A stretch of 62,121 nucleotides of DNA, filler included, from Gemmatimonadota bacterium (GTDB taxonomy: Bacteria; 4572-55; J002), in NCBI GenBank assembly GCA_003697105.1. It is 5 parts of 5 records of this genome, joined end to end, with 100 filler letters (N's around TTAATTAATTAA, not from the genome) between each part and the next. Parts side by side here need not be neighbours in the genome. Positions count along the whole stretch, not along the records: positions 51,044 to 59,121 come from RFFQ01000153.1; 4 more parts are not named here. One strand, 5' to 3'. Under the pieces are notes generated by a model, which had not been told where the DNA came from, ran no database searches, and worked only from the letters and a program-made list of their open reading frames with translations. The translations under genes were made by a program, and so were the position numbers. Shown piece after piece: positions 29,243-59,221 of the stretch (positions are counted from its first letter, which is position 1; each line of letters begins with the position of its first letter).

Positions 29243-29342
29243 NNNNNNNNNNNNNNNNNNNNNNNNNNNNNNNNNNNNNNNNNNNNTTAATTAATTAANN
29301 NNNNNNNNNNNNNNNNNNNNNNNNNNNNNNNNNNNNNNNNNN
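29243..29342. other. Artificial contig-joining spacer
   Basis: N run with central TTAATTAATTAA (stops in six frames); same 100-nt spacer at all four gaps. Confidence 0.97.
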
Positions 29343-43893: not shown

Positions 43894-43993
43894 NNNNNNN
43901 NNNNNNNNNNNNNNNNNNNNNNNNNNNNNNNNNNNNNTTAATTAATTAANNNNNNNNNNNNNNNNNNNNNNNNNNNNNNNNNNNNNNNNNNNN
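43894..43993. other. Artificial contig-joining spacer
   Basis: N run with TTAATTAATTAA. Confidence 0.97.
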
Positions 43994-44255: not shown

Positions 44256-45029
44256 ATGGCACATCATCCGGTTGATGAATTATTCGATCATGATTATGAT
44301 GGAATTCAGGAGTTTGATAATGACTTGCCACCTTGGTGGTTAAATCTGTTTTACCTGACGATCATTTGGTCTGTCTTGTATTTGCTGTATTACCATGTGA
44401 CAGGGATTGGTCTGTTGCAAGCGGAAAAATACAATAAAGAAGTGGACCCGCAATGGACTCGCCGTGCCGACCCCAATTACCAACCCCCCTTTTGGGCAGC
44501 GTATTCTTTTCATTCACCCTATGAAGGATCGCGCAAAGATGTTACGCCGCGCATGATGGCGGAAAATCCGGGGTTGTTTGGTGAAGCGGCTCTGATTGAA
44601 GAAGAAACGATTGAATACGAACCCCTCTTTGATGCCGCCAACCTTGCCGCCGGACGGGAGTTGTTTGAACGGAATTGCGGGGCAACCTGTCACGCGAATG
44701 ACGGGGGCGGAAACATCGGACCCAATTTAACCGATAATTTTTGGATCCACAGCGAAGGCGATATCAATGGGATTATCCGCACAATTGAACGTGGTGTCCC
44801 CGCTAAAGGGATGATCGCCTGGAAGCGCATTCTCAAGCCCGAAGAAATTCACCAAATTGGGAGCTACGTTTTAACACTACGCGGTACGACCCCTGCCAAT
44901 CCCAAACCCCCGCAAGGAGAGGAGTACCCGCTCCCGCCAAGCCTTCGTGAAGATACCGGTACCGGCGACGAAGTGCCTACCGAAGAGAATACGACGCCTG
45001 CGGAAGCCGAGGAATCCAACCAATCATGA
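44256..45029 (+). CDS. ccoP: cbb3-type cytochrome c oxidase subunit CcoP (single heme)
   Basis: HDYDGIQEFDNDLPPWW, heme motif CGATCH, GPNLTDNFWIH, GMIAW. Confidence 0.9.
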   Translation: MAHHPVDELFDHDYDGIQEFDNDLPPWWLNLFYLTIIWSVLYLLYYHVTGIGLLQAEKYNKEVDPQWTRRADPNYQPPFWAAYSFHSPYEGSRKDVTPRMMAENPGLFGEAALIEEETIEYEPLFDAANLAAGRELFERNCGATCHANDGGGNIGPNLTDNFWIHSEGDINGIIRTIERGVPAKGMIAWKRILKPEEIHQIGSYVLTLRGTTPANPKPPQGEEYPLPPSLREDTGTGDEVPTEENTTPAEAEESNQS

Positions 45030-46453
45030 ACGAAAATGTTTCAAGCGAATCTCCCGTGGTAGAAGAATCCTATCGCGACCGGATCAGTACTGTTGATGAA
45101 CAAGGCAAACGGGTGTGGATTTACCCGAAAAAGCCCAAAGGGACGTTTTATAATGCGCGGACGATCTTCAGTATTTTCCAATTAGGGATTTTGTTCGCGT
45201 TGCCGTTTATCAAGGTCGATGGGCATCCCTTTATGCAGTTTGATATTCTAGGGCGGAAGTTCATCTTGTTTGGGCAAGCATTTTGGCCCCAAGATTTCCA
45301 CTTGTTTGCCCTTGCCATTATCACATTTTTTGTCGGGATCATTCTGTTTACGGCAGTGTATGGGCGGGTTTTTTGTGGATGGGGCTGCCCGCAAACGCTC
45401 TTTATGGAGATGCTCTTCCGTAAAATTGAATATTGGATCGAAGGTGATGCCCATCGCCAACGAGCGCTCGCTCGGGCACCATGGACGGGGGAGAAAATCT
45501 TCAAACGATCCATGAAATATGCGATCTTTCTAGGGTTATCGTTCTTGATTGGAAACCTTTTTCTAGCGTACATCATCGGGGTTGACCGGCTATTTGAGAT
45601 TGTCACTCAGCCACCGGCGGCAAATCCGGGTGGCTTCACCTTTGTGCTGATTGTCACGGGGATTACTTTTTTTATCTATGCTTATTTTCGGGAGCAACTC
45701 TGCCTGATTGTTTGCCCCTATGGGCGGTTGCAATCCGTTTTGCTGGATAAAGAATCGATTGTCGTCGCGTACGATTTTAAGCGGGGTGAGCCGCGAGGTA
45801 AGCGCAAAAAAAACCAACCTGATGATCATCTGGGGGATTGTATTGATTGCAAATTATGCGTCCAAGTTTGCCCGACAGGGATCGATATCCGCAACGGTAC
45901 TCAATTAGAATGTATCAACTGTACGGCATGTATTGATGCGTGTAATTCCATCATGACCAAGGTCAATAAGCCTAAAGGCTTGATCCGGTACGCCTCGTAT
46001 AATGCGATAGAAGAGTCGCGTAAATCGCACATCACGGGGCGGGGTGTGGCGTACACAGTCGTGTTGGTGGGATTAGCCGTCTTACTCACGTTTTTACTCA
46101 CGACGCGCACCGATGTGGAAACCACGGTATTACGGACGCCCGGTGTACTCTACCAACGGGTAGAAGCGGAAGATGCACTTCGTAATCTGTATTCGGTGAA
46201 AGTGGTGAATAAAACGTTTGATGAAATACCCGTCTCTTTCAAATTGGAATCGCATTCCGGGCGGGTTGAACTTATCGGTGTCGATCATCTGGATGTGGAA
46301 TCGCAGGAAGTGGCGGAAGGTGCCCTATTTATTTATATCCCCGAAAATGATGTACAGGGACCGAGCATGAAGATCAAAGTTGGGGTCTATAATGATGAAA
46401 CGGGCGAGCTTTTACAAACGGTCAAAACGGCATTTTTAGGACCTGCAATGTAG
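45026..46453 (+). CDS. ccoG: Cytochrome c oxidase accessory protein CcoG/FixG
   Basis: GRVFCGWGCPQT, CPYGRLQ, CIDCKLCVQVCPTGIDIR, CINCTACIDAC. Confidence 0.96.
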   Translation: MNENVSSESPVVEESYRDRISTVDEQGKRVWIYPKKPKGTFYNARTIFSIFQLGILFALPFIKVDGHPFMQFDILGRKFILFGQAFWPQDFHLFALAIITFFVGIILFTAVYGRVFCGWGCPQTLFMEMLFRKIEYWIEGDAHRQRALARAPWTGEKIFKRSMKYAIFLGLSFLIGNLFLAYIIGVDRLFEIVTQPPAANPGGFTFVLIVTGITFFIYAYFREQLCLIVCPYGRLQSVLLDKESIVVAYDFKRGEPRGKRKKNQPDDHLGDCIDCKLCVQVCPTGIDIRNGTQLECINCTACIDACNSIMTKVNKPKGLIRYASYNAIEESRKSHITGRGVAYTVVLVGLAVLLTFLLTTRTDVETTVLRTPGVLYQRVEAEDALRNLYSVKVVNKTFDEIPVSFKLESHSGRVELIGVDHLDVESQEVAEGALFIYIPENDVQGPSMKIKVGVYNDETGELLQTVKTAFLGPAM

Positions 46454-46462
46454 GGAAATATC

Positions 46463-46927
46463 ATGAATATCAAAAAATGGTTAGGGCACTGGGGATTCCG
46501 GATGGCGGTACTTTATACCAGTTTTGTGCTCTTTCTGGCCGGTTTTGCCATTTTTTCCATGTTTTTCCCCTTCGATCTGGTCGCTAAGGATTATTATGAG
46601 CAAGACCTGAAATATCAGCAACAAATTGATCGCATCCAACGGACGCGAGCGCTTCCCGGTGGCTTGAAATGTACTTACAACCCGGAGCGCGATGTGATTC
46701 TGATTACGTATCCCGCCTATCTGGATCAAGAGCAAATCCGGGGGGAAATTACGCTTTTTCGTCCGGCAAATGCCGCCTATGACCGGACGATTCCGGTTGA
46801 CGTGAATTCTGAAGGGACACAACGTATTGATACAACCCACCTGCCCAAAGGACTGTGGCGGGTGAAAATCCTCTGGCAAGCCGGTGAGGATGAATATTAC
46901 AATGAAGAAGTGGTTGTGTTACAATAA
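46463..46927 (+). CDS. ccoH: FixH/CcoH family protein
   Basis: N-terminal TM, LVAKDYYEQDLKYQQQID, follows ccoG. Confidence 0.85.
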   Translation: MNIKKWLGHWGFRMAVLYTSFVLFLAGFAIFSMFFPFDLVAKDYYEQDLKYQQQIDRIQRTRALPGGLKCTYNPERDVILITYPAYLDQEQIRGEITLFRPANAAYDRTIPVDVNSEGTQRIDTTHLPKGLWRVKILWQAGEDEYYNEEVVVLQ

Positions 46928-46956
46928 CAGGAAACTCTTTCAACCATCTGCTGAAC

Positions 46957-46989
46957 AAACCGCGCGGAGACTCTCTTCGGGCGGTTTTT
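46957..46989 (+). terminator. Intrinsic terminator after the cco cluster
   Basis: AAACCGC...GCGGTTTTT hairpin. Confidence 0.6.
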
Positions 46990-47030
46990 CATAAGATACT
47001 TTTTCTCCGTAAAACAGTTCAGGGTTGCCA

Positions 47031-49406
47031 ATGAAATCTATTCACGTTCTGTTTTCCATCCTGACCGGAATGATTCTGTTGACCACCGCCGCTGTTTTTC
47101 CCCAGCCGAACCTACCTTTTTCGGATGGCGCTACCACTCCTTACATATACGATGCCGAAACCGGTAACGGAACACACCTGCCACTGGTTCGAGAGGGACT
47201 GGACCCGCGCCCACGCTCCGTTGAGACTCTGGTGATTATCATGGTTGAATTTCGGGATGAGTCCTTCGATGCCGGGCATACGCCGGATTATTTTCGCCAA
47301 CTATTTTTCGGGCGAAATAGTGGTGATAAGAGCGTTCACCGCTTTTATTTTGAAAACTCGTATGGACGTACCCGTCTGGATGGCGCAGTGTACGGTCCTT
47401 TTTATCTGGACGTGCCAATGGCAACCTACGGCGCCAATGATAATCTGACTTACCGCCTGATTGGAGACGCCCTGCGGGCGGCAGACCCTACCGTTGATTT
47501 TGAAGCTTACGGTAATGGTCAGGGCAATATTGCTCATCCAATTGTGATTCATGCCGGCATCGGGCAAGAAGAAGACCCCGAAAACACCGATTTGCTCTGG
47601 TCGTTGCGGTGGGGCAACGATCTGAATCAAGGTACGTATGATGGTCAGGATGCCGATTGGGGTATTATCCTTGCCGAATCCTCACCCGTTGGAGTCGCGG
47701 CACATGAGTTAGGGCATGATTTTGGGTTGATCGATCTGTATGATTTTGATACGGGGGATGATACCCGGTGGGATTACAACAACTATCCGGTGGTATCGTG
47801 GTGTATTATGGCAAGTGGCTCGTGGGCAAAACACCGGCAGCCCGGTGATACCCCCACCCATTTTTGTGGCTATAACAAAATGAAGTTGGGCTGGCTGAAT
47901 CCGGTGGTTGTCGCCGGTGGGCAGGAGGTGAACATCAATGCCCAGGAAGTCACTTATCACAATGCCCTGTTCAAAATTCCGTTAGCGGTTTATGATCTGC
48001 CGGTTGGGGAAGGTACCATCCGCGCGGAAGAGTACTTTTTGCTGGAAAACCGGTATCCTCAAGCGGCGGGTATCCAATTTGATCGCTACGGGGTGGATGG
48101 GCAACCACTGGATACGGGTATCATTATCACCCATGTGGATGAACGGCAGATTCACCCCCAACGGCAGGAACTCTGGAACAGCAGTGAATCTCCAACTCAC
48201 CCTTCTTTGCCCCATTATGCCCTCTGGATTGAAGACCCCGGTATGGAAGCGATACAGGATCATCGCGTCAATTCCCAACGGAAACTGGATGCGGCGTATG
48301 CCCTTGAAGATGGTCAATTTTTTGTGGATGACGTTTTACCAGCAAACGGTAATTTACTTTTCCCCAACACCCGTACCAATGACGGCGACCCCACCGGAGT
48401 TTCGATCCGAATTTTAACACCTTCTGCGGAAACAATGGCAGTACGCTTTTTCGGCGGAGATGATCTGCCGCCAGAGCTTACGGTAGCCCTCCTTCCCAAC
48501 GCCGCATTTCCAGATCAGATCAGTATCGGAATGGTTGCCAATGAACCGCTTAATCCATTGCCGCTCTTTTCGGCACACGTGCGTGTTAATGATGGGGACG
48601 TGGTTCCACTGCGTTTAATTGATGACCAACGGGCGTTCGGACATGTTCAGGTTATGGATGGAATGAGTTATTTGCAGGTTTCGGCGTATGATCTCGCCCG
48701 AAATAAAACCACCATTGAGCGGGTGCTGGCTTCCTTTCGGGTTACCCCACATCAGGCGCAGGTACTCTATTCCCCAGACCAACAGCTCCACATTGACTTG
48801 CCGCCAGATGCTATCTTGAACCCTCAACGCTGGATTGTCACCTCTCTTCCGGAACCGGGTCCACCGTATAATATGGATTCATGGGTGTTACAAAGTGAGG
48901 TTTATCAGGTGATTACAACCGACCCCGTTCTGAAAAAACCGGTACAACTCCGCTTTACGGCGGCGTTGCAACCGGATCATGCTACCATTCTCTACCACAC
49001 GGCGGGTGGCTGGCAACCGCTGGTCACGTGGGGCGATGGTAATCAGTTTACCGCAGAAATCACTGGATGGGGAAGTGGTCTGTTCGCCCTTGGTGTCTCC
49101 TCCGGCAACCATTCCGATGCACCGGCGGCAGTGCGGATGTATCCCAGCGTTCCCAATCCGTTTAATGCTCGCACGGCAATCCGATATACCTTGCCGCGTT
49201 CCTTACAAGTCGATTTTCGGATTTATAACCTGAGGGGGCAAGTGGTGCGAACGCTCGTCACAGGGATTCAACCCGCCGGAGACCACACGTTGGTATGGGA
49301 TGGGCGGGATGATCGCGATCTGGCTGTGGAAAGTGGTGTGTATTATGCCAGATTGCGCGTGGTAAATCGATCAGACTACGGGATACCATTAGTATTAATG
49401 AAATAA
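47031..49406 (+). CDS. M6 (immune inhibitor A) family metalloprotease with FlgD/T9SS-like C-terminal domain
   Basis: VIHAGIGQE, AHELGHDFGLIDLYD, WCIMASGSW, EYFLLENR, PNPFN. Confidence 0.9.
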   Translation: MKSIHVLFSILTGMILLTTAAVFPQPNLPFSDGATTPYIYDAETGNGTHLPLVREGLDPRPRSVETLVIIMVEFRDESFDAGHTPDYFRQLFFGRNSGDKSVHRFYFENSYGRTRLDGAVYGPFYLDVPMATYGANDNLTYRLIGDALRAADPTVDFEAYGNGQGNIAHPIVIHAGIGQEEDPENTDLLWSLRWGNDLNQGTYDGQDADWGIILAESSPVGVAAHELGHDFGLIDLYDFDTGDDTRWDYNNYPVVSWCIMASGSWAKHRQPGDTPTHFCGYNKMKLGWLNPVVVAGGQEVNINAQEVTYHNALFKIPLAVYDLPVGEGTIRAEEYFLLENRYPQAAGIQFDRYGVDGQPLDTGIIITHVDERQIHPQRQELWNSSESPTHPSLPHYALWIEDPGMEAIQDHRVNSQRKLDAAYALEDGQFFVDDVLPANGNLLFPNTRTNDGDPTGVSIRILTPSAETMAVRFFGGDDLPPELTVALLPNAAFPDQISIGMVANEPLNPLPLFSAHVRVNDGDVVPLRLIDDQRAFGHVQVMDGMSYLQVSAYDLARNKTTIERVLASFRVTPHQAQVLYSPDQQLHIDLPPDAILNPQRWIVTSLPEPGPPYNMDSWVLQSEVYQVITTDPVLKKPVQLRFTAALQPDHATILYHTAGGWQPLVTWGDGNQFTAEITGWGSGLFALGVSSGNHSDAPAAVRMYPSVPNPFNARTAIRYTLPRSLQVDFRIYNLRGQVVRTLVTGIQPAGDHTLVWDGRDDRDLAVESGVYYARLRVVNRSDYGIPLVLMK

Positions 49407-50053: not shown

Positions 50054-50656
50054 ATGAAAATTTACATAATTTATTGGTTATCTTTAACCCTGACACTGAG
50101 TCTGACTTCTATTGCGTATGCGGACCCGCCGGATTGGGCAGGCCAGTTCAACGTTTCGGATTACGAATTTAACGCCAGTATGACGGGTATCTTGCTTATC
50201 AATGGGGAAGTTGCCCGGGATTCGCTGAACCAGATCGCGGCGTTTGTTGAAGATGAGGTGCGCGGTGTGGCAACCCCGATTGCTATTGGCGATCAATGGC
50301 TCTTTTTTTTAACCGTCTATAGCAATGCGGCAGTAGGGGAGATGATCACTTTTCGGGCATATATCGCCGGGCAAGATACCGTTTTACCGGTAGCAGAAAC
50401 GATAGAATTCCAGTTGAATGCCATTATCGGGCAACCCAATGCCCCCTTTGAATGGAATGTAACCCGCCTGATTTACGATCTCAACCAGAATCAACAGGTG
50501 GATGTGGGAGACATCCAATGGCTTTGCCAATTTTATCTCGGATCACAGCTAGGTGACCCGAATTATTTTAGCCAATTCGATTATGACCAAAATCATGCAA
50601 TTGATGAAACGGATTTGGTGTACTTGATGACGATCTGGTGTGGAGGGCAACCCTGA
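50054..50656 (+). CDS. Secreted protein with C-terminal dockerin-like domain
   Basis: Signal peptide; duplicated Ca loops DLNQNQQVDVGDI and DYDQNHAIDETDL. Confidence 0.7.
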   Translation: MKIYIIYWLSLTLTLSLTSIAYADPPDWAGQFNVSDYEFNASMTGILLINGEVARDSLNQIAAFVEDEVRGVATPIAIGDQWLFFLTVYSNAAVGEMITFRAYIAGQDTVLPVAETIEFQLNAIIGQPNAPFEWNVTRLIYDLNQNQQVDVGDIQWLCQFYLGSQLGDPNYFSQFDYDQNHAIDETDLVYLMTIWCGGQP

Positions 50657-50943
50657 TGAGCTGTTTTTTCGTTGTTTTGGTGATGTTAATGGCGATAGTC
50701 CCGGCGGGATATGCTGATCCTCCGGATTGGGATTTGGACCCAGCGGCATTCCAGTACACTTGCAACATCACCGGTATATTATATGTGAATAATGAGCCGG
50801 CTTTCGACCCCTTTAATGAACTCGCCGCTTTCGTGGATGGTGAGATTCGAGGTGTAGCGTCACCGGTACAAGTGGGGAATATGTGGCTTTTCTTTCTGAC
50901 CGTTTATTCCAACGAGGTGGTGGGTGAGATGATTCATTTTCAA
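50656..50943 (+). CDS. Paralog of the preceding secreted protein, cut by the gap
   Basis: TGATG coupling; shared YADPPDW..AAFV.GE.RGVA..WLFFLTVYSN. Confidence 0.75.
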
Positions 50944-51043
50944 NNNNNNNNNNNNNNNNNNNNNNNNNNNNNNNNNNNNNNNNNNNNTTAATTAATTAAN
51001 NNNNNNNNNNNNNNNNNNNNNNNNNNNNNNNNNNNNNNNNNNN
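50944..51043. other. Artificial contig-joining spacer
   Basis: N run with TTAATTAATTAA. Confidence 0.97.
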
Positions 51044-51975
51044 AGCGGGTCAACTTCAATTTCCGGTGTTCCGCCGCTTTCCCCTCCGATGCCGTCCAGT
51101 GGGACATTGAAGATGGGGTCTTGATTCGAGAAATTGATGATTTGCAAGTTGTCGCTGATTTCACCTGCCCGATCCGGACTAAAATGCACCTGAAAGTCAT
51201 AAACTTCGGTTTCGGCGATTTCCAAGATGCCGCTAACCTCTAAAATGGCACTTGGATTCCCCCATTCCAAAACCCCCAACCCGCTTACTTCAATGGTAAA
51301 AGCCGGATCGAACGTGACTAAACTGGTGATATAGAGGTCGTCATCACCGGTATTCGCAATGCTCACCGTTTGGCTTGCCATTTCGCCAATTTCGACCTCG
51401 CCATATGTGATACTCAATGGAGAAACAGACATTTCCCCCACGTCATCATCTGTAAGGTTTGGTGCGCCCGGCGTGCCGTCTTCTGTTTCGGCTAGCCAGG
51501 CATACGGTTGGCTGTTATCCAATACTGGCGCAATTAACTCCAGAGACCGGTTTCGATCATCTCCATCGGCATCGTCGGGCCACGGTCGATCATCTAAATA
51601 CGGAACCAGATCAACCAAATTGTCATCTGGGTCGAACAGGCGTACCTGATCACCATCATTACCTAAATCAAACCCATAACTGCCGATGACGTTATCCACA
51701 TCGTCATAATAGGCTTGAAAGGCACTCAAATTTCGGGCGAGTACGACATATTGACCCGCCGGTAACGAGTATGGGGGCAGAGTGAATTCTTCGTCCCCGC
51801 CATTCCGAAAAATCCACCCGCCCAAATTCAACGAGGTTGGTCCCGCGTTATACAGCTCGATAAATTCAGTTTCATCACTTAAATATGGGTTGTACTGAAT
51901 CTCATTGATGACGACTTGCGCTTGCGCCAAACTCGCCCCGATCAAGAGCCAGAAGAGAATTAATCGTGATAACAT
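51044..51975 (-). CDS. Secreted lamin-tail-domain protein with ASH/Ig-like repeats, 3'-truncated
   Basis: VVINEIQYNP..EFIELYN, LGNDGDQVRL, GTPGAPN, then SVSPLSITYGEV..IANTG. Confidence 0.82.
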
Positions 51976-52030
51976 GACTGCTCCTTTTTTATTTGTGGGG
52001 TGACACTACGTTCTATTCGGAAATATTTCC

Positions 52031-54490
52031 TTATTTGAGCAATACCATTGGTCGCGTTTCGGTAAACTCTCCGGCATCAAGGTGATAGAGATATACTCCT
52101 GATGGAACGGGTGTTCCGGCACTGTTCGTCCCGTTCCATTCCACCGCATAGTGATCTGCCGCTTGCGGCTGATCGACTAAAACCCGGATCAACTGCCCCT
52201 TGAGGCTGTAAATCGATAGTGTGGCGTGAGTTTCCACCGGTAACGTGTAGCGGATAGTCGTTTTGGGGTTAAACGGATTGGGGTAATTTTGGAGTAATGT
52301 GTAATGTTGAGGCGTCGTTTCCACTGCCGGCAGTTCAACCCCTTTGGGATCGGCAAGTTTGATGTTGTCTATCTCCACGAGCGCGGTTCCAGACTGCTTC
52401 ACGTAAAATTCCAACGTGGCAATCACGCCGCCGCCGGTAACGGCGCCGCCCGCGCCGTAACTGAATGCCGCATAGCGGGTTTGTCCTGCCTCAATGGTCG
52501 CCTCAATATCTGCCACATACCGTCCAGATTTCCCCAGAAAGCCGCGTTGCTCAATCTGCCGGAGTTCCAGTTGTTCCGGGGCGTAGCGCACATCAAACTG
52601 GTACGCGCCCAGACCTTCCGCATAGCTCACATTATCAACCTGTACATCAATTGCCAGTACCTCTCCGGCAGAGACCGACCGGTTATAATTTGCCAAACTG
52701 ACTTGAATCTCATGAACGCCGGTGGGCGTACCGGTGGAGGGTATTTCTTCCGGGAAGGGGCTGGTTTCACCCCAGTGAGATGCAATGATCTGTAAATCCA
52801 GCACATCGATACAGCCATTTTCATCAAAATCATATGCCGGAACGTACCCGACCTCACCGGAACAGGTATTCCAGCGATCCGCAACCAACTGAATATCGAG
52901 CGCGTCCACTTCACCGTCATTATCGGGATCGAACGGATAGGGTTGCTCCACAATCGAGACGCTACCGTTGGCAATCCGCGTGGGGATACTCACCCCGTGA
53001 ATATTACCCACCTGCACATTATCAAAGGTGATGTTTGCCGTGCCCATTCCTAAACTTGTCCAGTAGATGACACCCAAAATGCCGGCGCCGCTGGGTCCGG
53101 CATTATCGCCGTAGCTGTATGCGCCAAAGTCCAATCGACCGGCGGTATTATCCACAACCGGTCCCAGTGGGGAGACGGTACGTCCGGTACTGCCTAGAAA
53201 ATCACCCAATTCGACCGAATCGACCTGCACGAGTGCCGCATTAAAGGTTACATCCAGATCGAAGGCACCTAAATTGTTGACATCATCAATCACAATATGG
53301 GTCACAAAGGGCATCCCCTCCGATGTTTGTTGCCAACTGGGATCGACTCGAACGACGGTATTCGTGGGTTGTCCCACATTAAACCGGTAGGTATTGTTGG
53401 GCGCACCGCCCGGATCGGTGGCGCGTTCTCCATCACCGGCAATTGCGGCGACATAGTAATCAACGGTGGTGCCCAAAGCTTGTCCCGGAATATCTGCCGT
53501 GTACGTTACCGGGTCGGAGCCACCGCCACCGCCACCGCCGCCTCCTTGTGGCGTGGCGTAAATTCGCATTCCATCCACGTGGCAACCGCTGGTGTTGCAC
53601 GAGCCATTACTGAACGTACTTATCATGTCAAATGTTTCGCCGTTGTAGCTTAAACTGGCGGTATAGGGGGGTTGGGGGGTTGGGTCATCATCGTCCACTT
53701 CCAGCCAGATGTTGCCATACAGTTGGCTACTCGTCAGGGTGTACGTATGTCCGGCGTTGTCTTCAATGGTGATAATCGCTCCCGGAACGACATTCGACCC
53801 GTTGAGGTCGTCATAAATTGTGCCACCAAAGGCAAACTCATCTTCACCGGGACCGCCGTCATAATGGCATGCTCCGCAGTCCTCACCGGGGCGGTGCGAT
53901 TCATCCTCATCATCGTCCCGCAAGCCCCAATCAAAGCGGGTTTCATGTACCGGTGGGATGAATGACACGGCGGGGACTTCGGTCATGGCAACTTCGGTAA
54001 AATTAACACCGCCATCTATGCTATAAAAGAGGGAGACGGACTCGACCCCGCTCTCATCTAAGACGGTCGTTTGAACCTCATAAGGACCGTTTTCGTCTTC
54101 GGTATCTGGCAATTGAGTGGTGTTGCTGATCAAGGGTCCACCGGTTGCCCCGGGGAAGGATGCCGGGTCTCCTGGATTTGTCACCTCTGCCGGATTGCCC
54201 GGATCGGGGTCACCAATTGACCACGTGCCGGTGGAATCTTGCAATTCCACACCGTTGGAGTAGCCATCATTGTCAGAATCAATGGCGGCGAGTACCGCAT
54301 CCCAAAGATGGTTGTTCGCGGCAAAATCATCGGCAAAGGGGGTATGGGTGCCCCCTTGTTGGGTCGCGTGGCAGGAGAGGCACATATCAACTGCGCCATT
54401 GGGGATTTGATTTTCATAGCCGGGCAGTGCCCAGACCACTAGAGGGGCGCAAATAAAAAGAATACCGAGTAAAATCAACTGCTTATACAT
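52031..54490 (-). CDS. Secreted multi-heme c-type cytochrome with cohesin-dockerin-cohesin and FlgD/T9SS-like domain
   Basis: GGAGG RBS and signal peptide. Heme motifs CLSCH (54368-54382), CGACH (53864-53878), CNTSGCH (53579-53599). Two cohesin-like repeats (LGAFDLDVTFN / LGAYQFDVRY), dockerin (DPDNDGEVDALDI..DFDENGCIDVLDL), LLQNYPNPFNP. Confidence 0.8.
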   Translation of the reverse strand: MYKQLILLGILFICAPLVVWALPGYENQIPNGAVDMCLSCHATQQGGTHTPFADDFAANNHLWDAVLAAIDSDNDGYSNGVELQDSTGTWSIGDPDPGNPAEVTNPGDPASFPGATGGPLISNTTQLPDTEDENGPYEVQTTVLDESGVESVSLFYSIDGGVNFTEVAMTEVPAVSFIPPVHETRFDWGLRDDDEDESHRPGEDCGACHYDGGPGEDEFAFGGTIYDDLNGSNVVPGAIITIEDNAGHTYTLTSSQLYGNIWLEVDDDDPTPQPPYTASLSYNGETFDMISTFSNGSCNTSGCHVDGMRIYATPQGGGGGGGGGSDPVTYTADIPGQALGTTVDYYVAAIAGDGERATDPGGAPNNTYRFNVGQPTNTVVRVDPSWQQTSEGMPFVTHIVIDDVNNLGAFDLDVTFNAALVQVDSVELGDFLGSTGRTVSPLGPVVDNTAGRLDFGAYSYGDNAGPSGAGILGVIYWTSLGMGTANITFDNVQVGNIHGVSIPTRIANGSVSIVEQPYPFDPDNDGEVDALDIQLVADRWNTCSGEVGYVPAYDFDENGCIDVLDLQIIASHWGETSPFPEEIPSTGTPTGVHEIQVSLANYNRSVSAGEVLAIDVQVDNVSYAEGLGAYQFDVRYAPEQLELRQIEQRGFLGKSGRYVADIEATIEAGQTRYAAFSYGAGGAVTGGGVIATLEFYVKQSGTALVEIDNIKLADPKGVELPAVETTPQHYTLLQNYPNPFNPKTTIRYTLPVETHATLSIYSLKGQLIRVLVDQPQAADHYAVEWNGTNSAGTPVPSGVYLYHLDAGEFTETRPMVLLK

Positions 54491-54537
54491 GATATATCCT
54501 CCAAAAATACAGGTGAGAGAAACCGGTAGTTTCCGGT

Positions 54538-55932
54538 TCAATCGGTTTCCGTTTCATCATCGCTGATGAGACCGTACTTTTTTAATTTGTAGTGCAAATG
54601 ACTGCGGCTAACCCCCAGCAACCGCGCGGCTTGCGCCTGTACGTCTTTTGATGTTGCTAATGCTTTAGCAATAATCTGTTTTTCGATGTCTTCGATGAGT
54701 TCGGGTAAGGTTTCGCCGTTTTCCAAGCGGCGCAAATAATTCTCACTATCGGTTGGTTCGCTATTCATCTTTTCGAAGGTTTCGGGCAAGGCGGTGGGGG
54801 TAATGGTTTCGGTGGGGGAGAGTACGACGGCGCGTTCGATCACATTTTGCAATTCCCGAATATTGCCGGGCCAGGAATAGTGTGTGAGCAGGCGGTAGGT
54901 TTCGGCACTGAGGACGGTCTGTTTGTTTAGTTGGCGGTTGTACTGTTCCAAAAAGTGTTGTGCCAATAAAGGGATGTCATCTTTACGTTCTGCCAAAGGG
55001 GGTAGATGGATCTGCACCACGCTCAGGCGGTAGTACAAATCTTGCCGGAATTTGCCGGTGTCCATCAGCTGTTGTAGATTTTGATTGGTGGCGGCAATGA
55101 TCCGCACGTCCACTTTGATGGGTGAGATGCCGCCAACCCGCTCAAATTCCTGCTCCTGCAATGCCCGTAGAATTTTAGCTTGTAAGCTGAGTTGCATATC
55201 GCCGATCTCATCTAAAAAGAGGGTGCCCCCGTTGGCGAGTTCAAATTTTCCCTTTTTTTGCTGGTGGGCGCCGGTGAAAGCTCCTTTTTCATAGCCGAAC
55301 AACTCGCTTTCCAGTAGATCGTGGGGGATGGCGGCACAGTTGATCTTAACAAAGGGCTGGTGAGCCCGGTCGCTGAGTCCGTGAATCGCTTTGGCAATCA
55401 GTTCTTTGCCGGTGCCGCTTTCTCCTAAAATCAGAACCGTTGTGGGCGTAGGCGCCACCTGCCGGACGATTTCAAAAATATGTTGCATCTTGCTGTTCCG
55501 GCTGATGATATTCCGAAATTCATATTGTTGCCGGACTTCCTCCCGTAATTGGCGGTTTTCCCGCCGCAGGTCATAGACCTCCAGCGCTTTGGCGACGGTA
55601 GATTTGATCTGGTTGACTTCAAATGGTTTGGTGATATAGTCAAACGCACCCTGGCGCATTGCCTCAACGGCACTTTCAATCGAACCATGCGCCGTAATGA
55701 GTACAACCGGAACATCTGGGGCGATCTGCTTGATTTCGCTCATTAACTGCATCCCATCCATGTTGGACATGCGAATATCACTGATGACCAGATGGCATTC
55801 GATTAATTTGAAGGTTTCCAAAGCAGTCAACCCATCTGTGGCGGTGCGGATGGTGTGCCCTTCTTCCTCTAGCATCATCCGCAAGACGGTCAGCATATTT
55901 TTTTTGTTATCGACAATCAGGATATGCGCCAT
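54538..55932 (-). CDS. Sigma-54-dependent (NtrC/AtoC-type) response regulator
   Basis: REC, GESGTGKE, ESELFGYEKGAFTGA, FLDEIGD, WPGNIRELQN, Fis HTH. Start at MAHILIV with GGAG RBS. Confidence 0.95.
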   Translation of the reverse strand: MAHILIVDNKKNMLTVLRMMLEEEGHTIRTATDGLTALETFKLIECHLVISDIRMSNMDGMQLMSEIKQIAPDVPVVLITAHGSIESAVEAMRQGAFDYITKPFEVNQIKSTVAKALEVYDLRRENRQLREEVRQQYEFRNIISRNSKMQHIFEIVRQVAPTPTTVLILGESGTGKELIAKAIHGLSDRAHQPFVKINCAAIPHDLLESELFGYEKGAFTGAHQQKKGKFELANGGTLFLDEIGDMQLSLQAKILRALQEQEFERVGGISPIKVDVRIIAATNQNLQQLMDTGKFRQDLYYRLSVVQIHLPPLAERKDDIPLLAQHFLEQYNRQLNKQTVLSAETYRLLTHYSWPGNIRELQNVIERAVVLSPTETITPTALPETFEKMNSEPTDSENYLRRLENGETLPELIEDIEKQIIAKALATSKDVQAQAARLLGVSRSHLHYKLKKYGLISDDETETD

Positions 55933-56085
55933 ATCCAACTCCGGGAATCCGTTGGAGTTCCAAAATCTGAAGGGTGAGTAACTTCGGTTTAGAGTCCTGG
56001 GGTCAAGACACCTTGTGACCCCGACGTCTGTCAAAAAATTTGAAATCGATTCCAGTTTGCGTCAAAGAATTTGTACGCGGTGAGC

Positions 56086-57360
56086 TTAGTCCGAATGGGT
56101 GGAAACGGTGTCCGACACGGGTGAATCCTCGATATTACCATCCTCCGTTATATCACGGATAGGCAGTACTATTGTAAAAACCGTGCCATTTCCGAGTTCG
56201 CTATCCACCAGAATTCGCCCGCCGTGCTCTGAGATGATGTTGGCGGCAATGGCTAACCCCAGCCCGGTGCCTTCATCTTTCGTGGTAAAAAAGGGTTCAA
56301 ACAGCATGGAAAGGTTTTTACGCGGGATGCCCAGACCGGTATCAATAAACGCAATTTCGATGCGATGTGTGATATGGCGGGTTTTTAGGGTCAACTGGCC
56401 GCCATGGGGCATGGCTTGTATCGCGTTCAGAAAGAGATTTAAAAAGACCTGATGTAATGCGTTGCGGTCAACGGCGGTCAAGGGTAAATGGGGGTCGTAT
56501 GTTTCGATGACGTTCACATGTGGCGGCAGAGTTTCCTGAGCTAAATTGACCACTTGATGGAGTATCTCGTTGATGTCTCGCTGTTCCAATTGCAGTTTTA
56601 CTGGGCGGGAATATCGCAAGAAGTCGTTAATAAATTCGTTTAAACGGCTGGCTTCCTCCTGAATCGCCGCCGTGAGTACCCGGCAACGGAGGTTTTCAAG
56701 TTCCATGCTTTGGATAAGATCGGTTGAGCTTTTGATGATACTCAGTGGGTTACGGATTTCATGGGCAATCCCCGCCGAAAGCCGCCCAATCGCTGCCATC
56801 TTCTCTTGCCGGGAGATTTCCGTCCGTGCCCGTTGTAACTCTGTATTTTGGGCTTCCAATGAGGCTATCATTTTCGCCGTCTGGATTTTTTCCCGGCGGT
56901 ACTCCCGTCCCATAAAATAGACCACCAAGCCGATCACAAAAAAGAGGATTATCTTTGAGACCGTCTCAAAAATCTCATGATCGAAGACGGTCAATTCGTG
57001 GGCTTGCGGCGAAAAAATCAAGGTACTGCCAAATCCAATTGATGCCAACGTGCAGACCAGAATAACCCCCTTGAGATGCTGTTCTGCCGCGATGATGATG
57101 ATCGGAATGGTATAGAGCGGAAAAAACGCGCTTTCGTAAGCTCCGGTGGTGTAAACAAGCGTGGTCGTGAGGATGATGTTGGTCAGAGAGTCAATCAGAT
57201 GTTTTTCTTTTAGATGCTGGCTGGCAAGATATTGTAGCAAGATTGCCCCGAAAAATGCGCCGTAAACGTAAAGACGGGCATTGCCCGCATCGCCAAATAG
57301 CAGAAAGAACACCAGAGCGGCAACGGCAGTAAGGACATTAATTTGATCGAATAGTTTCAT
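56086..57360 (-). CDS. Membrane sensor histidine kinase (PilS/NtrB-like)
   Basis: About 5-6 TM helices, AHEIRNPL, NLFLNAIQAM, DTGLGI, FEPFFTTK, GTGLGL. Confidence 0.93.
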   Translation of the reverse strand: MKLFDQINVLTAVAALVFFLLFGDAGNARLYVYGAFFGAILLQYLASQHLKEKHLIDSLTNIILTTTLVYTTGAYESAFFPLYTIPIIIIAAEQHLKGVILVCTLASIGFGSTLIFSPQAHELTVFDHEIFETVSKIILFFVIGLVVYFMGREYRREKIQTAKMIASLEAQNTELQRARTEISRQEKMAAIGRLSAGIAHEIRNPLSIIKSSTDLIQSMELENLRCRVLTAAIQEEASRLNEFINDFLRYSRPVKLQLEQRDINEILHQVVNLAQETLPPHVNVIETYDPHLPLTAVDRNALHQVFLNLFLNAIQAMPHGGQLTLKTRHITHRIEIAFIDTGLGIPRKNLSMLFEPFFTTKDEGTGLGLAIAANIISEHGGRILVDSELGNGTVFTIVLPIRDITEDGNIEDSPVSDTVSTHSD

Positions 57361-57436
57361 GAGCCATCTTTCTGATCCCGAAAACTCAAAGATACGAAAA
57401 AACAGTGTGTCAGCGAGTCTAGTGGTTCCAAATTTT

Positions 57437-59071
57437 TTACCAACGGTAACCTACAGAAAGCCAGAGGTGATGCCCTTGGCGCAGGTCGCCGGTTTGATAG
57501 AAATACTGCCCTTGTAGCGTTATGTTTTGAGGTTTCCATAAATAAGACCCGTACCACCGCAATTCTTGCTGGTTGAGGGTGCGACTCATTTCGTGGGATT
57601 GATTGTAGTGCTCTAACCGCACGGTAACACCTGCCGATCCCCACTCAAATGTACGGTACAGATCAACGGAAGGCGCATGACCCTTTAGAAAGCGGTTATC
57701 GGCGTATTGGTAGCGCACTGTCAGAATCGATTGGGCATCCCACAGGGAATTGACCCGTAGGTAGTGAGACACGGAAAATGCCGGTTTTGTCTGCCCCGTT
57801 TGAACCCGCCAGCCAATGGATGTGCCGGTCTTCAACGAGGGGGAGAGTTTCCAGTCTCCACCCCCACGAAACCCCTGTTGTTGCGCGTTAAAAAAGAGGC
57901 TATCGGGAATATCTCGATTTTCGGTCTGCCGCACGTTTTCCGAGTGGGTATAGGCGGCAGAAATATGCATATTGGCGTGTACTTGATAGCGGATCGAAAG
58001 ATTAAACCGGCTCAGTTGCAGTTGACCCGCGCCGGTATTCGCTTTCCAGCCACGATTGAGATCGACTTCTGCTTGTTGGTAAACGGATAACCGGCGGTGT
58101 TCCCAGTAGTTTGCTTGCAGATACAGCACCTCCCGGCTAACTTCACCTTGGATATATTGCCCCACTACGCCCACAGTTGCCTTGTATTTACGGGAGCGAT
58201 AATCGCCGCGATCCAGATAGAGATACCCTCCATATTTTTGCTGGTCCGGATTCGGCTCCGAACGGGTTAAATCCGGTTGAAATCCACCTAAAACACCAAT
58301 GCCCCAACCCGTGGCATGATAGACCGCTTCCATGCCATCCCAACTGCCGCCGCCCCGCATGTAATCAGAATAAATCCGCCCGAAATGGAGGGTGTACGAC
58401 GACGGTTGGTAACTCAGTTCCGCATAGTAGAACCGGTTTCGCCATTCTGTCTCGCGGACCGCGGCGCTAATATTCCGGCGGCGCATTTGGTAGCGGCTGC
58501 GGGCTTTCAAGCGGAAATGGAGCGGCATACCCCCCAAATTTTCCACTTTATACGTGATTCTAAATTGGGGTTGGTAAAAATCTTCGCCAAATTTAGACTG
58601 ATCCTGAAATGCTTCCACTCCCACTTCCGCGCGTCCCCGAATCGTTGTGTTGAGTTGATCCGCCGGGGGTGGGGGTGGGAGGAGTTCCGGTCGAGTTTGG
58701 GATTCGGAGGGGCTGGAGCGAACTTTAGGGAGCATTTCGGGTGCTCCGGCTTGCTTTGTGTGGGGGGTGAATCGCACTTCGTCTGCTACTTGCAAATTTG
58801 TTGTTTGGGATTCCACTTCACAAGCGGCTGAATGTGGTGCGACATGACGTACCCGCAGGATGGCGACTGGTGTTCCATTCCGCCAGACCTGCACCCGGTC
58901 GTCTATTTCTATTCCGGCGGCTTTGCCCTGATCGATGTAAACCATGCCGGCAGCGATGTACTTAATTTTAGCCGTGCCTTGTGCTTGTGCGGTCCCAATT
59001 ATCAGCAGAATAAACCATAATACAGCAAAAAATAAATTGTGCAGGTAGTTAATTCGATCTCTTTTTGTCAT
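57437..59071 (-). CDS. Putative outer-membrane beta-barrel protein with small N-terminal beta domain
   Basis: Signal peptide, VYIDQGKAAGI..DDRVQV domain, Pro-rich linker, amphipathic beta strands, terminal LSVGYRW. Confidence 0.72.
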   Translation of the reverse strand: MTKRDRINYLHNLFFAVLWFILLIIGTAQAQGTAKIKYIAAGMVYIDQGKAAGIEIDDRVQVWRNGTPVAILRVRHVAPHSAACEVESQTTNLQVADEVRFTPHTKQAGAPEMLPKVRSSPSESQTRPELLPPPPPADQLNTTIRGRAEVGVEAFQDQSKFGEDFYQPQFRITYKVENLGGMPLHFRLKARSRYQMRRRNISAAVRETEWRNRFYYAELSYQPSSYTLHFGRIYSDYMRGGGSWDGMEAVYHATGWGIGVLGGFQPDLTRSEPNPDQQKYGGYLYLDRGDYRSRKYKATVGVVGQYIQGEVSREVLYLQANYWEHRRLSVYQQAEVDLNRGWKANTGAGQLQLSRFNLSIRYQVHANMHISAAYTHSENVRQTENRDIPDSLFFNAQQQGFRGGGDWKLSPSLKTGTSIGWRVQTGQTKPAFSVSHYLRVNSLWDAQSILTVRYQYADNRFLKGHAPSVDLYRTFEWGSAGVTVRLEHYNQSHEMSRTLNQQELRWYGSYLWKPQNITLQGQYFYQTGDLRQGHHLWLSVGYRW

Positions 59072-59080
59072 TCTAAAACT

Positions 59081-59116
59081 CTCCCAATTCTTCCCAACTC
59101 CCCAACTCCCCAACTC
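59081..59116. repeat. Short 8-bp tandem repeat (CCCCAACT-like)
   Basis: ctcccaat-tc-ttcccaact-ccccaact-ccccaact-c near the contig end. Confidence 0.6.
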
Positions 59117-59121
59117 ATAAA

Positions 59122-59221
59122 NNNNNNNNNNNNNNNNNNNNNNNNNNNNNNNNNNNNNNNNNNNNTTAATTAATTAANNNNNNNNNNNNNNNNNNNNNNN
59201 NNNNNNNNNNNNNNNNNNNNN
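59122..59221. other. Artificial contig-joining spacer
   Basis: N run with TTAATTAATTAA. Confidence 0.97.

Follow-up and report, generated by a model that had tools for sequence, protein, structure and literature searches.

Several described systems share parts with the protein treated here. MtrC and OmcA of Shewanella are decahaem lipoproteins of the outer surface, which they reach by type II secretion, and they are linked to a porin-cytochrome conduit. Cohesin and dockerin modules are found together on one chain in CipA of C. thermocellum (PDB 3kcp, 2b59). In anaerobic methanotrophic (ANME) archaea, proteins with a dockerin plus multiple cohesins are described in the excerpted text of Chadwick et al. 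2022 (PMC9012536), and the excerpted text of Timmers et al. 2017 (PMC5244752) speculates on a cohesin/dockerin role in 'MHC adhesion'. As a further case, we describe a gene from a hot-spring Gemmatimonadota bacterium (assembly GCA_003697105.1) whose product carries both haem-attachment motifs and such modules. The gene lies at 52031..54490 (-) of the window, by which we mean the whole 62,121-nucleotide stretch of DNA that was analysed, and its parts are given below in window coordinates on the same strand. According to the open reading frame (ORF) list and the translation, it is a single open frame of 819 codons plus a stop codon; we refer to its 819-aa product as P0001.

From its N-terminus, P0001 consists of a signal peptide, a Temptin_C-like domain with a CxxCH motif, an immunoglobulin (Ig)-like domain split by a nested domain with one CxxCH and one CX4CH motif, a cohesin-like module, a dockerin, a cohesin and a type A sorting domain of the type IX secretion system (T9SS). 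The fusion is real. Two haem-motif domains, neither of them characterised, make the protein a variant among the cohesin-dockerin surface proteins that do not belong to cellulosomes. From each of two hot-spring metagenome runs, a single contig spans the whole 8078-base stretch that holds the gene; both contigs are free of gaps, and they depart from it at 1 letter in one case and at 6 in the other. The two runs belong to one study, and one of them may be the source of the genome; since contigs of both cover the gene whole, the fusion is not an assembly chimera. On balance, we favour the view that P0001 is modular T9SS cargo, made up of a head that carries haem and a tail of connector modules, and would act as a surface-tethered small cytochrome rather than as a scaffold for other cytochromes. 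A first-pass annotation of the window had instead proposed a haem c cytochrome built as a cohesin-dockerin scaffold, which could polymerise or dock other enzymes.

Haem-motif domains of the head

The three CXnCH motifs of P0001, which use six of the eight cysteines of the mature protein, are C37LSCH41 (54368..54382), C205GACH209 (53864..53878) and the CX4CH motif C298NTSGCH304 (53579..53599). In 200,000 shuffles of the protein, three CX2-4CH motifs never appear and two appear in 6. Among relatives, both cysteines and the histidine of the first motif are kept in 17 of 17 aligned sequences, and the alignment used for the other two (A2, 43 sequences) has C205, C208, H209, C298 and H304 invariant and C303 in 42 of 43. 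The three haem-attachment motifs pointed out in the first-pass annotation are thus not a product of chance, and they are conserved in homologues.

Residues 110-400 can be understood from an exhaustive HMMER search, which returned 740 proteins at E <= 0.001, matches to the Ig-like domain included; the best 150 were listed. The matches fall into two classes. In the first, residues ~117-173 and ~329-377 make up one Ig-like domain, which has no name; its N-terminal half (residues 117-173; 53972..54142) matches P0185 20-75 and P0215 26-85, and its C-terminal half (residues 329-377; 53360..53506) matches P0185 79-126 and P0215 85-129. The domain is contiguous in small proteins such as these two and is repeated many-fold in giant proteins; in P0001 it is interrupted by about 155 residues, and a Gly8 linker precedes its C-terminal half. 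The second class covers residues ~193-314 (53549..53914) and comprises mostly small exported proteins of 110-300 aa, several of which begin, as read from the alignment, with a lipoprotein-like signal ending in Cys. Apart from P0001, no protein among the best 150 of the 740 matches spans all 291 residues in one stretch, and Pfam leaves the stretch from Temptin_C to the first cohesin without a name. Because the Ig-like halves are contiguous elsewhere and the haem segment stands alone elsewhere, the CxxCH...CX4CH segment forms a domain of its own, inserted into a loop of the Ig-like domain. The extent of this nested domain is defined by the homologue search, A2, the structural model and the fold matches described below.

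Alignment A2 shows how the two sites of the nested domain vary. The first motif has CX2 spacing in 33 sequences, CX4 in 9 and CX3 in 1, and the second is divided between CX4 and CX2, with 21 of the 43 sequences each. Position 199 is His in 34 of 43 sequences and Met in 6, and position 289 is Met in 42; H199 and M289 are candidate distal haem ligands. Interchangeable CXn spacing with an invariant His, together with His/Met alternation, is typical of haem c attachment sites and of axial haem ligands, and disulfides do not show it. Given the interchangeable spacing, the invariant His and the alternation at position 199, we read the nested domain as a haem domain, and predicted haem attachment is well supported at both of its sites.

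The company that this dihaem domain keeps can be seen in the same set of matches. A hidden Markov model (HMM) of the domain finds it in 57 of the 149 non-self matches listed, and at least two CX2-4CH motifs are present in 56 of the 57. Among the 43 members of A2, the Pfam families matched are CarboxypepD_reg (PF13620) in 31, Cytochrome_C7 in 21 (E up to 0.1) and Cytochrome_CBB3 in 19, and the NCBIfam families are NF041895 'choice-of-anchor V' in 18 and TIGR01904 in 13. P0001 itself has no match to PF13620 and does not reach NF041895 in the NCBIfam search. In the longer proteins P0108, P0127, P0137 and P0148, the domain adjoins bona fide cytochrome c domains. A standalone paralogue of 158 aa is encoded in the same genome at G000:C186:64862-65389 (-), which is L001:7860-8336; it matches the family HMM at E 8.9e-25 and has 30% identity with the nested domain.

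The AlphaFold2 (AF2) model of the nested domain is a beta-sandwich flanked by both motifs, with a predicted local distance difference test score (pLDDT) of 83.6. Among transthyretin-like structures, 5aq0_B is matched with Z 7.6 and a root mean square deviation of 2.5 over 77 aligned residues (VIA), a Z value under 8 that can reflect a common arrangement; the same reading holds for the Z of 7.8 obtained with 1r6v_A (VIA). A Foldseek search of the PDB with the model gives no match at E <= 0.001. In the ESM Atlas, residues 1-400 have no usable match and residues 190-315 meet only unnamed 'hypothetical protein' clusters.

The Temptin_C-like domain occupies residues 21-107 (54170..54430) and matches PF24784 at 50.8 bits (cut-off 27); in the genome search the match scores 55.6 bits and is the only copy in the genome. 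The domain holds a TSP3-like calcium loop, DSDNDGYSNGVE, and in the 17 aligned sequences its invariant CxxCH stands beside an invariant calcium loop of the form DxDxDG...NG.E. Most relatives are proteins of ~222 aa that consist of this head and a T9SS tail, with 44-53% identity, and their source names include Ignavibacteria, Melioribacter and Bacteroidota. The AF2 model of the domain, made from 17 sequences, has a pLDDT of 57.1, too low for use. Haem at the Temptin_C site is possible, with a weaker case than for the two sites of the nested domain. In a distant genome, related at the level of domain only, two adjoining ORFs of 477 and 312 aa (L003 = G024:C30:30958-34296) have N-termini 48% and 46% identical to the Temptin_C head.

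Export, connector modules and genomic setting

Residues 1-21 (MYKQLILLGILFICAPLVVWA; 54428..54490) are the signal peptide; read by eye from the translation, it is hydrophobic, with a type I-like cleavage site (VWA/LPG) and no lipobox. At the other end, residues 736-819 (52034..52285) form the T9SS type A C-terminal sorting domain. Here, TIGR04183 is matched in NCBIfam at residues 736-814 with 32.1 bits (cut-off 23), and FlgD_ig in Pfam at residues 744-803 with 31.3 bits (cut-off 27). The genome encodes the corresponding machinery, including PorU (649.9 bits, cut-off 420) and SprA (508.6 bits summed, cut-off 200). A tail resembling the T9SS C-terminal domain (CTD) is present in 93 of its ORFs, among which only P0001 has more than one haem motif; the sole other one with a haem-type motif, at G000:C110:233-1105 (+), has a single CNAPYCH (CX4CH).

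For haem attachment, the genome has three Cytochrom_C_asm matches, one of them with CcmE (84.8 bits) beside it, and no match to ResB (PF05140), which together point to Ccm system I. This system acts on exported CxxCH motifs and requires little other context. CXnCH motifs in a predicted exported protein are found together with a maturation system, and a T9SS tail together with T9SS machinery.

Several other ORFs of the genome are multihaem, with 8 to 22 CxxCH motifs each. One cluster (G000:C114:4500-24092; L012) has ORFs with 9, 11, 19, 17 and 8 CxxCH motifs, along with NrfD-like, 4Fe-4S, NapC/NirT-like and cytochrome b561-fused members, a 400-aa ORF that belongs to no family and two fusions of a response regulator with GCV_H-like domains. 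A second contig (C117:1-6000; L013) has ORFs with 22 and 20 CxxCH motifs. The C114/C117 multihaem genes may be an extracellular electron transfer apparatus.

Between the head and the sorting domain, P0001 carries cohesin-like module 1 (residues 384-514; 52949..53341), the dockerin (residues 515-582; 52745..52948) and cohesin module 2 (residues 586-735; 52286..52735). In the whole protein, Cohesin (PF00963) is matched at 50.3 bits (cut-off 24.1) over two stretches, with the best at 605-709. When the modules are scanned singly, module 2 scores 40.5 bits and module 1 scores 20.0, under the cut-off; module 1 is nevertheless homologous to module 2, with 29% identity over 97 aa (E 2e-13). Dockerin_1 (PF00404) is matched at residues 520-570 with 25.5 bits in the whole protein and 31.0 bits alone (cut-off 22.9). 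The dockerin has two calcium loops of 12 residues, DPDNDGEVDALD and DFDENGCIDVLD; a helix comes after each loop, and both loops have D/N at positions 1, 3, 5, 9 and 12. Its top sequence match in the PDB is the dockerin of CipA (3kcp_A, E 1.4e-4). The module calls of the first-pass annotation were right in that Cohesin, Dockerin_1 and FlgD_ig all exceed their cut-offs in the Pfam search. Its cohesin-dockerin-cohesin order holds outright for the dockerin and module 2; for module 1, it depends on the homology with module 2 and not on a score above threshold. Complex prediction of cohesin 1 and of cohesin 2 with the dockerin gave 'no answer', with scores of 0.05 and 0.03, and so gives no evidence either way.

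The genome as a whole has 14 cohesin matches (13 over cut-off) and 16 dockerin matches, distributed over 23 ORFs, of which 13 have a CTD-like tail and 4 have both cohesin and dockerin. P0001 is the sole member of this set with haem motifs, which are present in none of the other 22. Several giant adhesin-like proteins are among the members that were scanned, and a subtilase (Peptidase_S8) at G000:C160:37594-41721 (L008) has two cohesins, a dockerin and a T9SS tail. Its module kinds, though not their order, are those of P0003, a subtilase of another organism that has the closest relative of the P0001 cassette, cohesin-dockerin-cohesin-CTD, with 33% identity over 54% of the query. Related cohesins elsewhere are found on VWA, LRR and papain-type heads. 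Since the cassette occurs on varied heads, it can be regarded as a general connector, with the haem head as its cargo in this case. The Pfam matches of P0001 include no carbohydrate-binding module (CBM) family; among the dockerin-bearing ORFs of the genome, the scan covered the heads of a minority.

Some further surface proteins were noticed alongside this set. Tandem small secreted paralogues are encoded in the window at 50054-50656 (+) and 50638-50943 (+, cut by the contig end), the first of which has a C-terminal dockerin that scores 20.6 bits, just under the cut-off, in the window scan and 23.0 bits in the genome search. Its unnamed N-terminal domain of ~120 aa, which has 36% identity (E 8e-20) with a domain inside P0095, a protein described in the next section, seems to travel with cohesin-dockerin systems. 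At G000:C47:3329-44911 (-), a single 13,861-codon open frame that contains many weak Ig/CTD-like repeats is a candidate giant surface protein.

The host genome is 4.18 Mb in 199 contigs and is 96.85% complete; the gene lies on contig C31, which is window 51044-59121. The window joins five contigs with spacers (44 N + 12 bases + 44 N) at 29243-29342, 43894-43993, 50944-51043 and 59122-59221. Gene order across the spacers is thus not real, and the true neighbours of the gene are only those within 51044-59121. The FixG/FixH and M6-peptidase genes at 45026-49406 were ruled out as neighbours in this way, as they lie on contig C30 beyond an N spacer. On C31, the same-strand neighbours are genes for an unknown protein of 558 aa, a histidine kinase and a sigma-54-type response regulator, the last of which ends 47 nt before the P0001 gene. 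At E <= 0.01, Pfam assigns no family to the 558-aa ORF (57437-59113 (-)), which lies upstream of the histidine kinase gene. Downstream on the same strand is a secreted LTD-plus-Ig protein, truncated by the contig end. A sigma-54 promoter pattern has 25 matches where 32 are expected and none between the regulator and the gene, which gives no support to sigma-54 control by the adjacent regulator. As for the start of the gene, a Shine-Dalgarno sequence read as GGAGGA (54497..54502) stands 6 nt 5' of the ATG at 54490, and the alternative TTG at 54541 would run into the stop of the preceding gene. We take the ATG as the start because of the GGAGGA upstream and the signal peptide directly after it.

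Readings of the protein

If P0001 is haem-bearing T9SS cargo, as we favour, its signal peptide suggests that it would be exported by Sec, after which the Ccm system would attach two haems to the nested domain in the periplasm, with H209 and H304 as proximal ligands and probably H199 and M289 as distal ligands. A third haem would possibly be attached to the Temptin-like domain. T9SS carries folded cargo. The tail and the machinery suggest that the folded protein would cross the outer membrane by this route, that PorU would remove the tail and that the protein would stay at the surface. There, to go by the modules, the dockerin and cohesins would clip it to others of the 23-ORF cohesin/dockerin set. 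P0001 would then be the one redox-active member of that surface network, and its haems could serve in electron exchange with substrates outside the cell or in redox chemistry there.

A number of results weigh against this view and are best considered together. No electron path to P0001 was found, and no known route feeds electrons to a T9SS-displayed protein. The multihaem ORFs of the genome (at least two CxxCH motifs) other than P0001 include none of the 23 cohesin/dockerin ORFs, and the standalone paralogue of the dihaem domain lies amid tyrosine-catabolism genes, between an alpha/beta hydrolase gene and genes for homogentisate/HPPD-type dioxygenases, and not amid redox genes. On the side of the connectors, there is the score of module 1 under its cut-off, no partner was identified, and a phmmer search of the genome's ORFs finds no close paralogue of the cassette. 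The haem head is also absent from both same-class genomes among the 40 other genomes searched. Further points of this kind concern the haem motifs themselves and are taken up with the non-haem reading below.

The wider distribution bears on a broader reading, in which cohesin-dockerin pairing builds a redox-active layer outside the outer membrane and is a general way to display cytochromes. P0095, of 1056 aa, combines the dihaem domain and another CxxCH with PKD domains, Dockerin_1, Cohesin and a T9SS tail, and the clusters neighbouring its family are Candidatus Marinimicrobia by source names. Its haem domain is 45% identical to that of P0001 (E 3e-28), while its connector modules have no similarity to those of P0001 that BLAST can detect. 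The connectors being unlike in this respect, the dihaem-connector fusion in P0095 is probably of independent origin. In addition, P0148 joins the dihaem domain to Dockerin_1 and PSCyt1, and P0051, with Temptin_C and a dockerin, is the nearest mixed form among the bacterial Temptin_C proteins. The whole architecture, which the full-length homologue search finds in no protein but the window's own, likewise remains unconfirmed elsewhere in a contig scan with the whole protein (185,579 species genomes; 74 pattern matches, 0 confirmed). Since neither same-class genome has the haem head, there is no basis for judging how far P0001 is conserved along its whole length; it is, as far as can be seen, lineage-specific. 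Taken as a whole, with a redox-active layer of this kind, two undescribed types of haem domain clipped into the surface network for cytochrome display, and an independent rise of the same solution in the Marinimicrobia-like P0095, the broader reading is in our view doubtful.

In another reading, the CxxCH motifs are disulfides or a metal site, and P0001 has no more than a structural or adhesive role as a T9SS protein of the surface. For neither haem-motif family did the searches yield a relative that has been characterised or has a solved structure, and P0001 passes no cytochrome model, with Cytochrome_CBB3 at 14.6 bits against a cut-off of 27 and TIGR01904 at 13.3 against 27. Whether the query is the whole protein, profile A1 or profile A2, searches of PDB sequences return only dockerin, FlgD-type and trivial CxxCH-segment matches, and the predicted core of the nested domain is an ordinary transthyretin-like sandwich. 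In the Temptin_C domain, no second His or Met is conserved among the 17 aligned sequences, cytochrome models match 0 of the 17, and the cysteines of animal temptin form two disulfides according to the excerpted text of PMC2762978. Against the non-haem reading, a His follows directly on the second Cys, without exception, at all three sites; CX2, CX3 and CX4 interchange at the nested-domain sites alongside the His/Met alternation; the nested domain co-occurs with real cytochrome c domains; and the genome has Ccm system I. We consider the non-haem reading unlikely.

The haem head may also be real and the protein released after T9SS export as a soluble redox enzyme or shuttle, in which case the modules would bind other cells or matrix. 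T9SS cargo can be either released or anchored, and the CTD type alone leaves the choice between the two unsettled. Cell-cell or matrix roles have been proposed for cohesin/dockerin proteins of ANME archaea and sulphate-reducing bacteria (SRB), as given in the excerpted texts of PMC5244752 and PMC10553843. The same kind of tail is, however, present on 13 of the 23 cohesin/dockerin ORFs, which fits a common surface location, and release, too, appears unlikely.

Least probable is the proposal of the first-pass annotation that the dockerin binds cohesins of other copies to give branched haem-bearing chains, or that the protein is a scaffold for other redox enzymes: the chain does have two cohesin-type modules and one dockerin, whose two loops are canonical and near-symmetric, but in characterised cellulosomes the dockerin of a scaffoldin pairs not with its own cohesins but with cohesins that differ in type and belong to other proteins (type I/II specificity), and with a haem motif in 0 of the 22 other cohesin/dockerin ORFs the genome offers no redox-active candidate to dock.

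Comparison with known systems

The literature search found no cytochrome fused to cohesin or dockerin; S4 Data of PMC9012536, which might list one, and the module catalogue of Peer et al. 2009 lay outside its scope. It also found no discussion of a T9SS-exported cytochrome. The first-pass annotation knew of no characterised example of the combination, and the literature search likewise found none, whereas the combination itself is not a one-off, given that P0095 and P0148 also join the dihaem domain to dockerin or cohesin.

What the comparison means depends on the head. If it binds haem, the Temptin_C-like CxxCH domain and the CxxCH-sandwich-CX4CH domain are new c-type cytochrome domains, both of them widespread, and P0001 illustrates type IX export of a cytochrome. 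It would also be a case in which cohesin and dockerin are used to position a redox protein, so far only a speculation for ANME consortia. If the head binds no haem, P0001 is one more modular T9SS surface protein. Residues 22-380 make a small construct for haem chemistry, and the 14 cohesin and 16 dockerin matches are a defined set for a pairing map.

As a haem protein outside the outer membrane, P0001 would be a possible functional analogue of MtrC and OmcA; no sequence or fold relation to them was found. Each half of its head belongs to a family with members elsewhere. Like the bacterial Temptin_C proteins (PF24784), many of which have the same kind of sorting tail, it has its head straight after the signal peptide, with a CxxCH and a calcium loop; unlike those proteins, which are head and tail only, it adds the dihaem module and the cohesin-dockerin cassette. 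The nested domain resembles the unnamed family in which a transthyretin-like sandwich stands between a CxxCH and a CX2-4CH motif, with 30-50% identity in A2 and all of the invariant residues. It differs from that family in being inserted in a loop of another domain, within an 819-aa T9SS protein.

For the connector part, P0001 is like CipA in having cohesin and dockerin on one chain, and its calcium loops are canonical. Unlike the cellulosomal scaffoldins, it has no carbohydrate-binding module or glycoside hydrolase context, and its first cohesin falls under the cut-off when scanned alone. It is closer in kind to the 'scaffoldin-like' proteins of ANME archaea, as the excerpted descriptions present them: cohesin and dockerin on one secreted chain, no sign of a cellulosome, many such proteins per genome and varied heads. 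The difference lies at the two ends of the chain. In the ANME proteins, the same descriptions give an S-layer or PGF-type anchor and do not describe haem motifs, whereas P0001 has a haem module for a head and a T9SS tail for an anchor.

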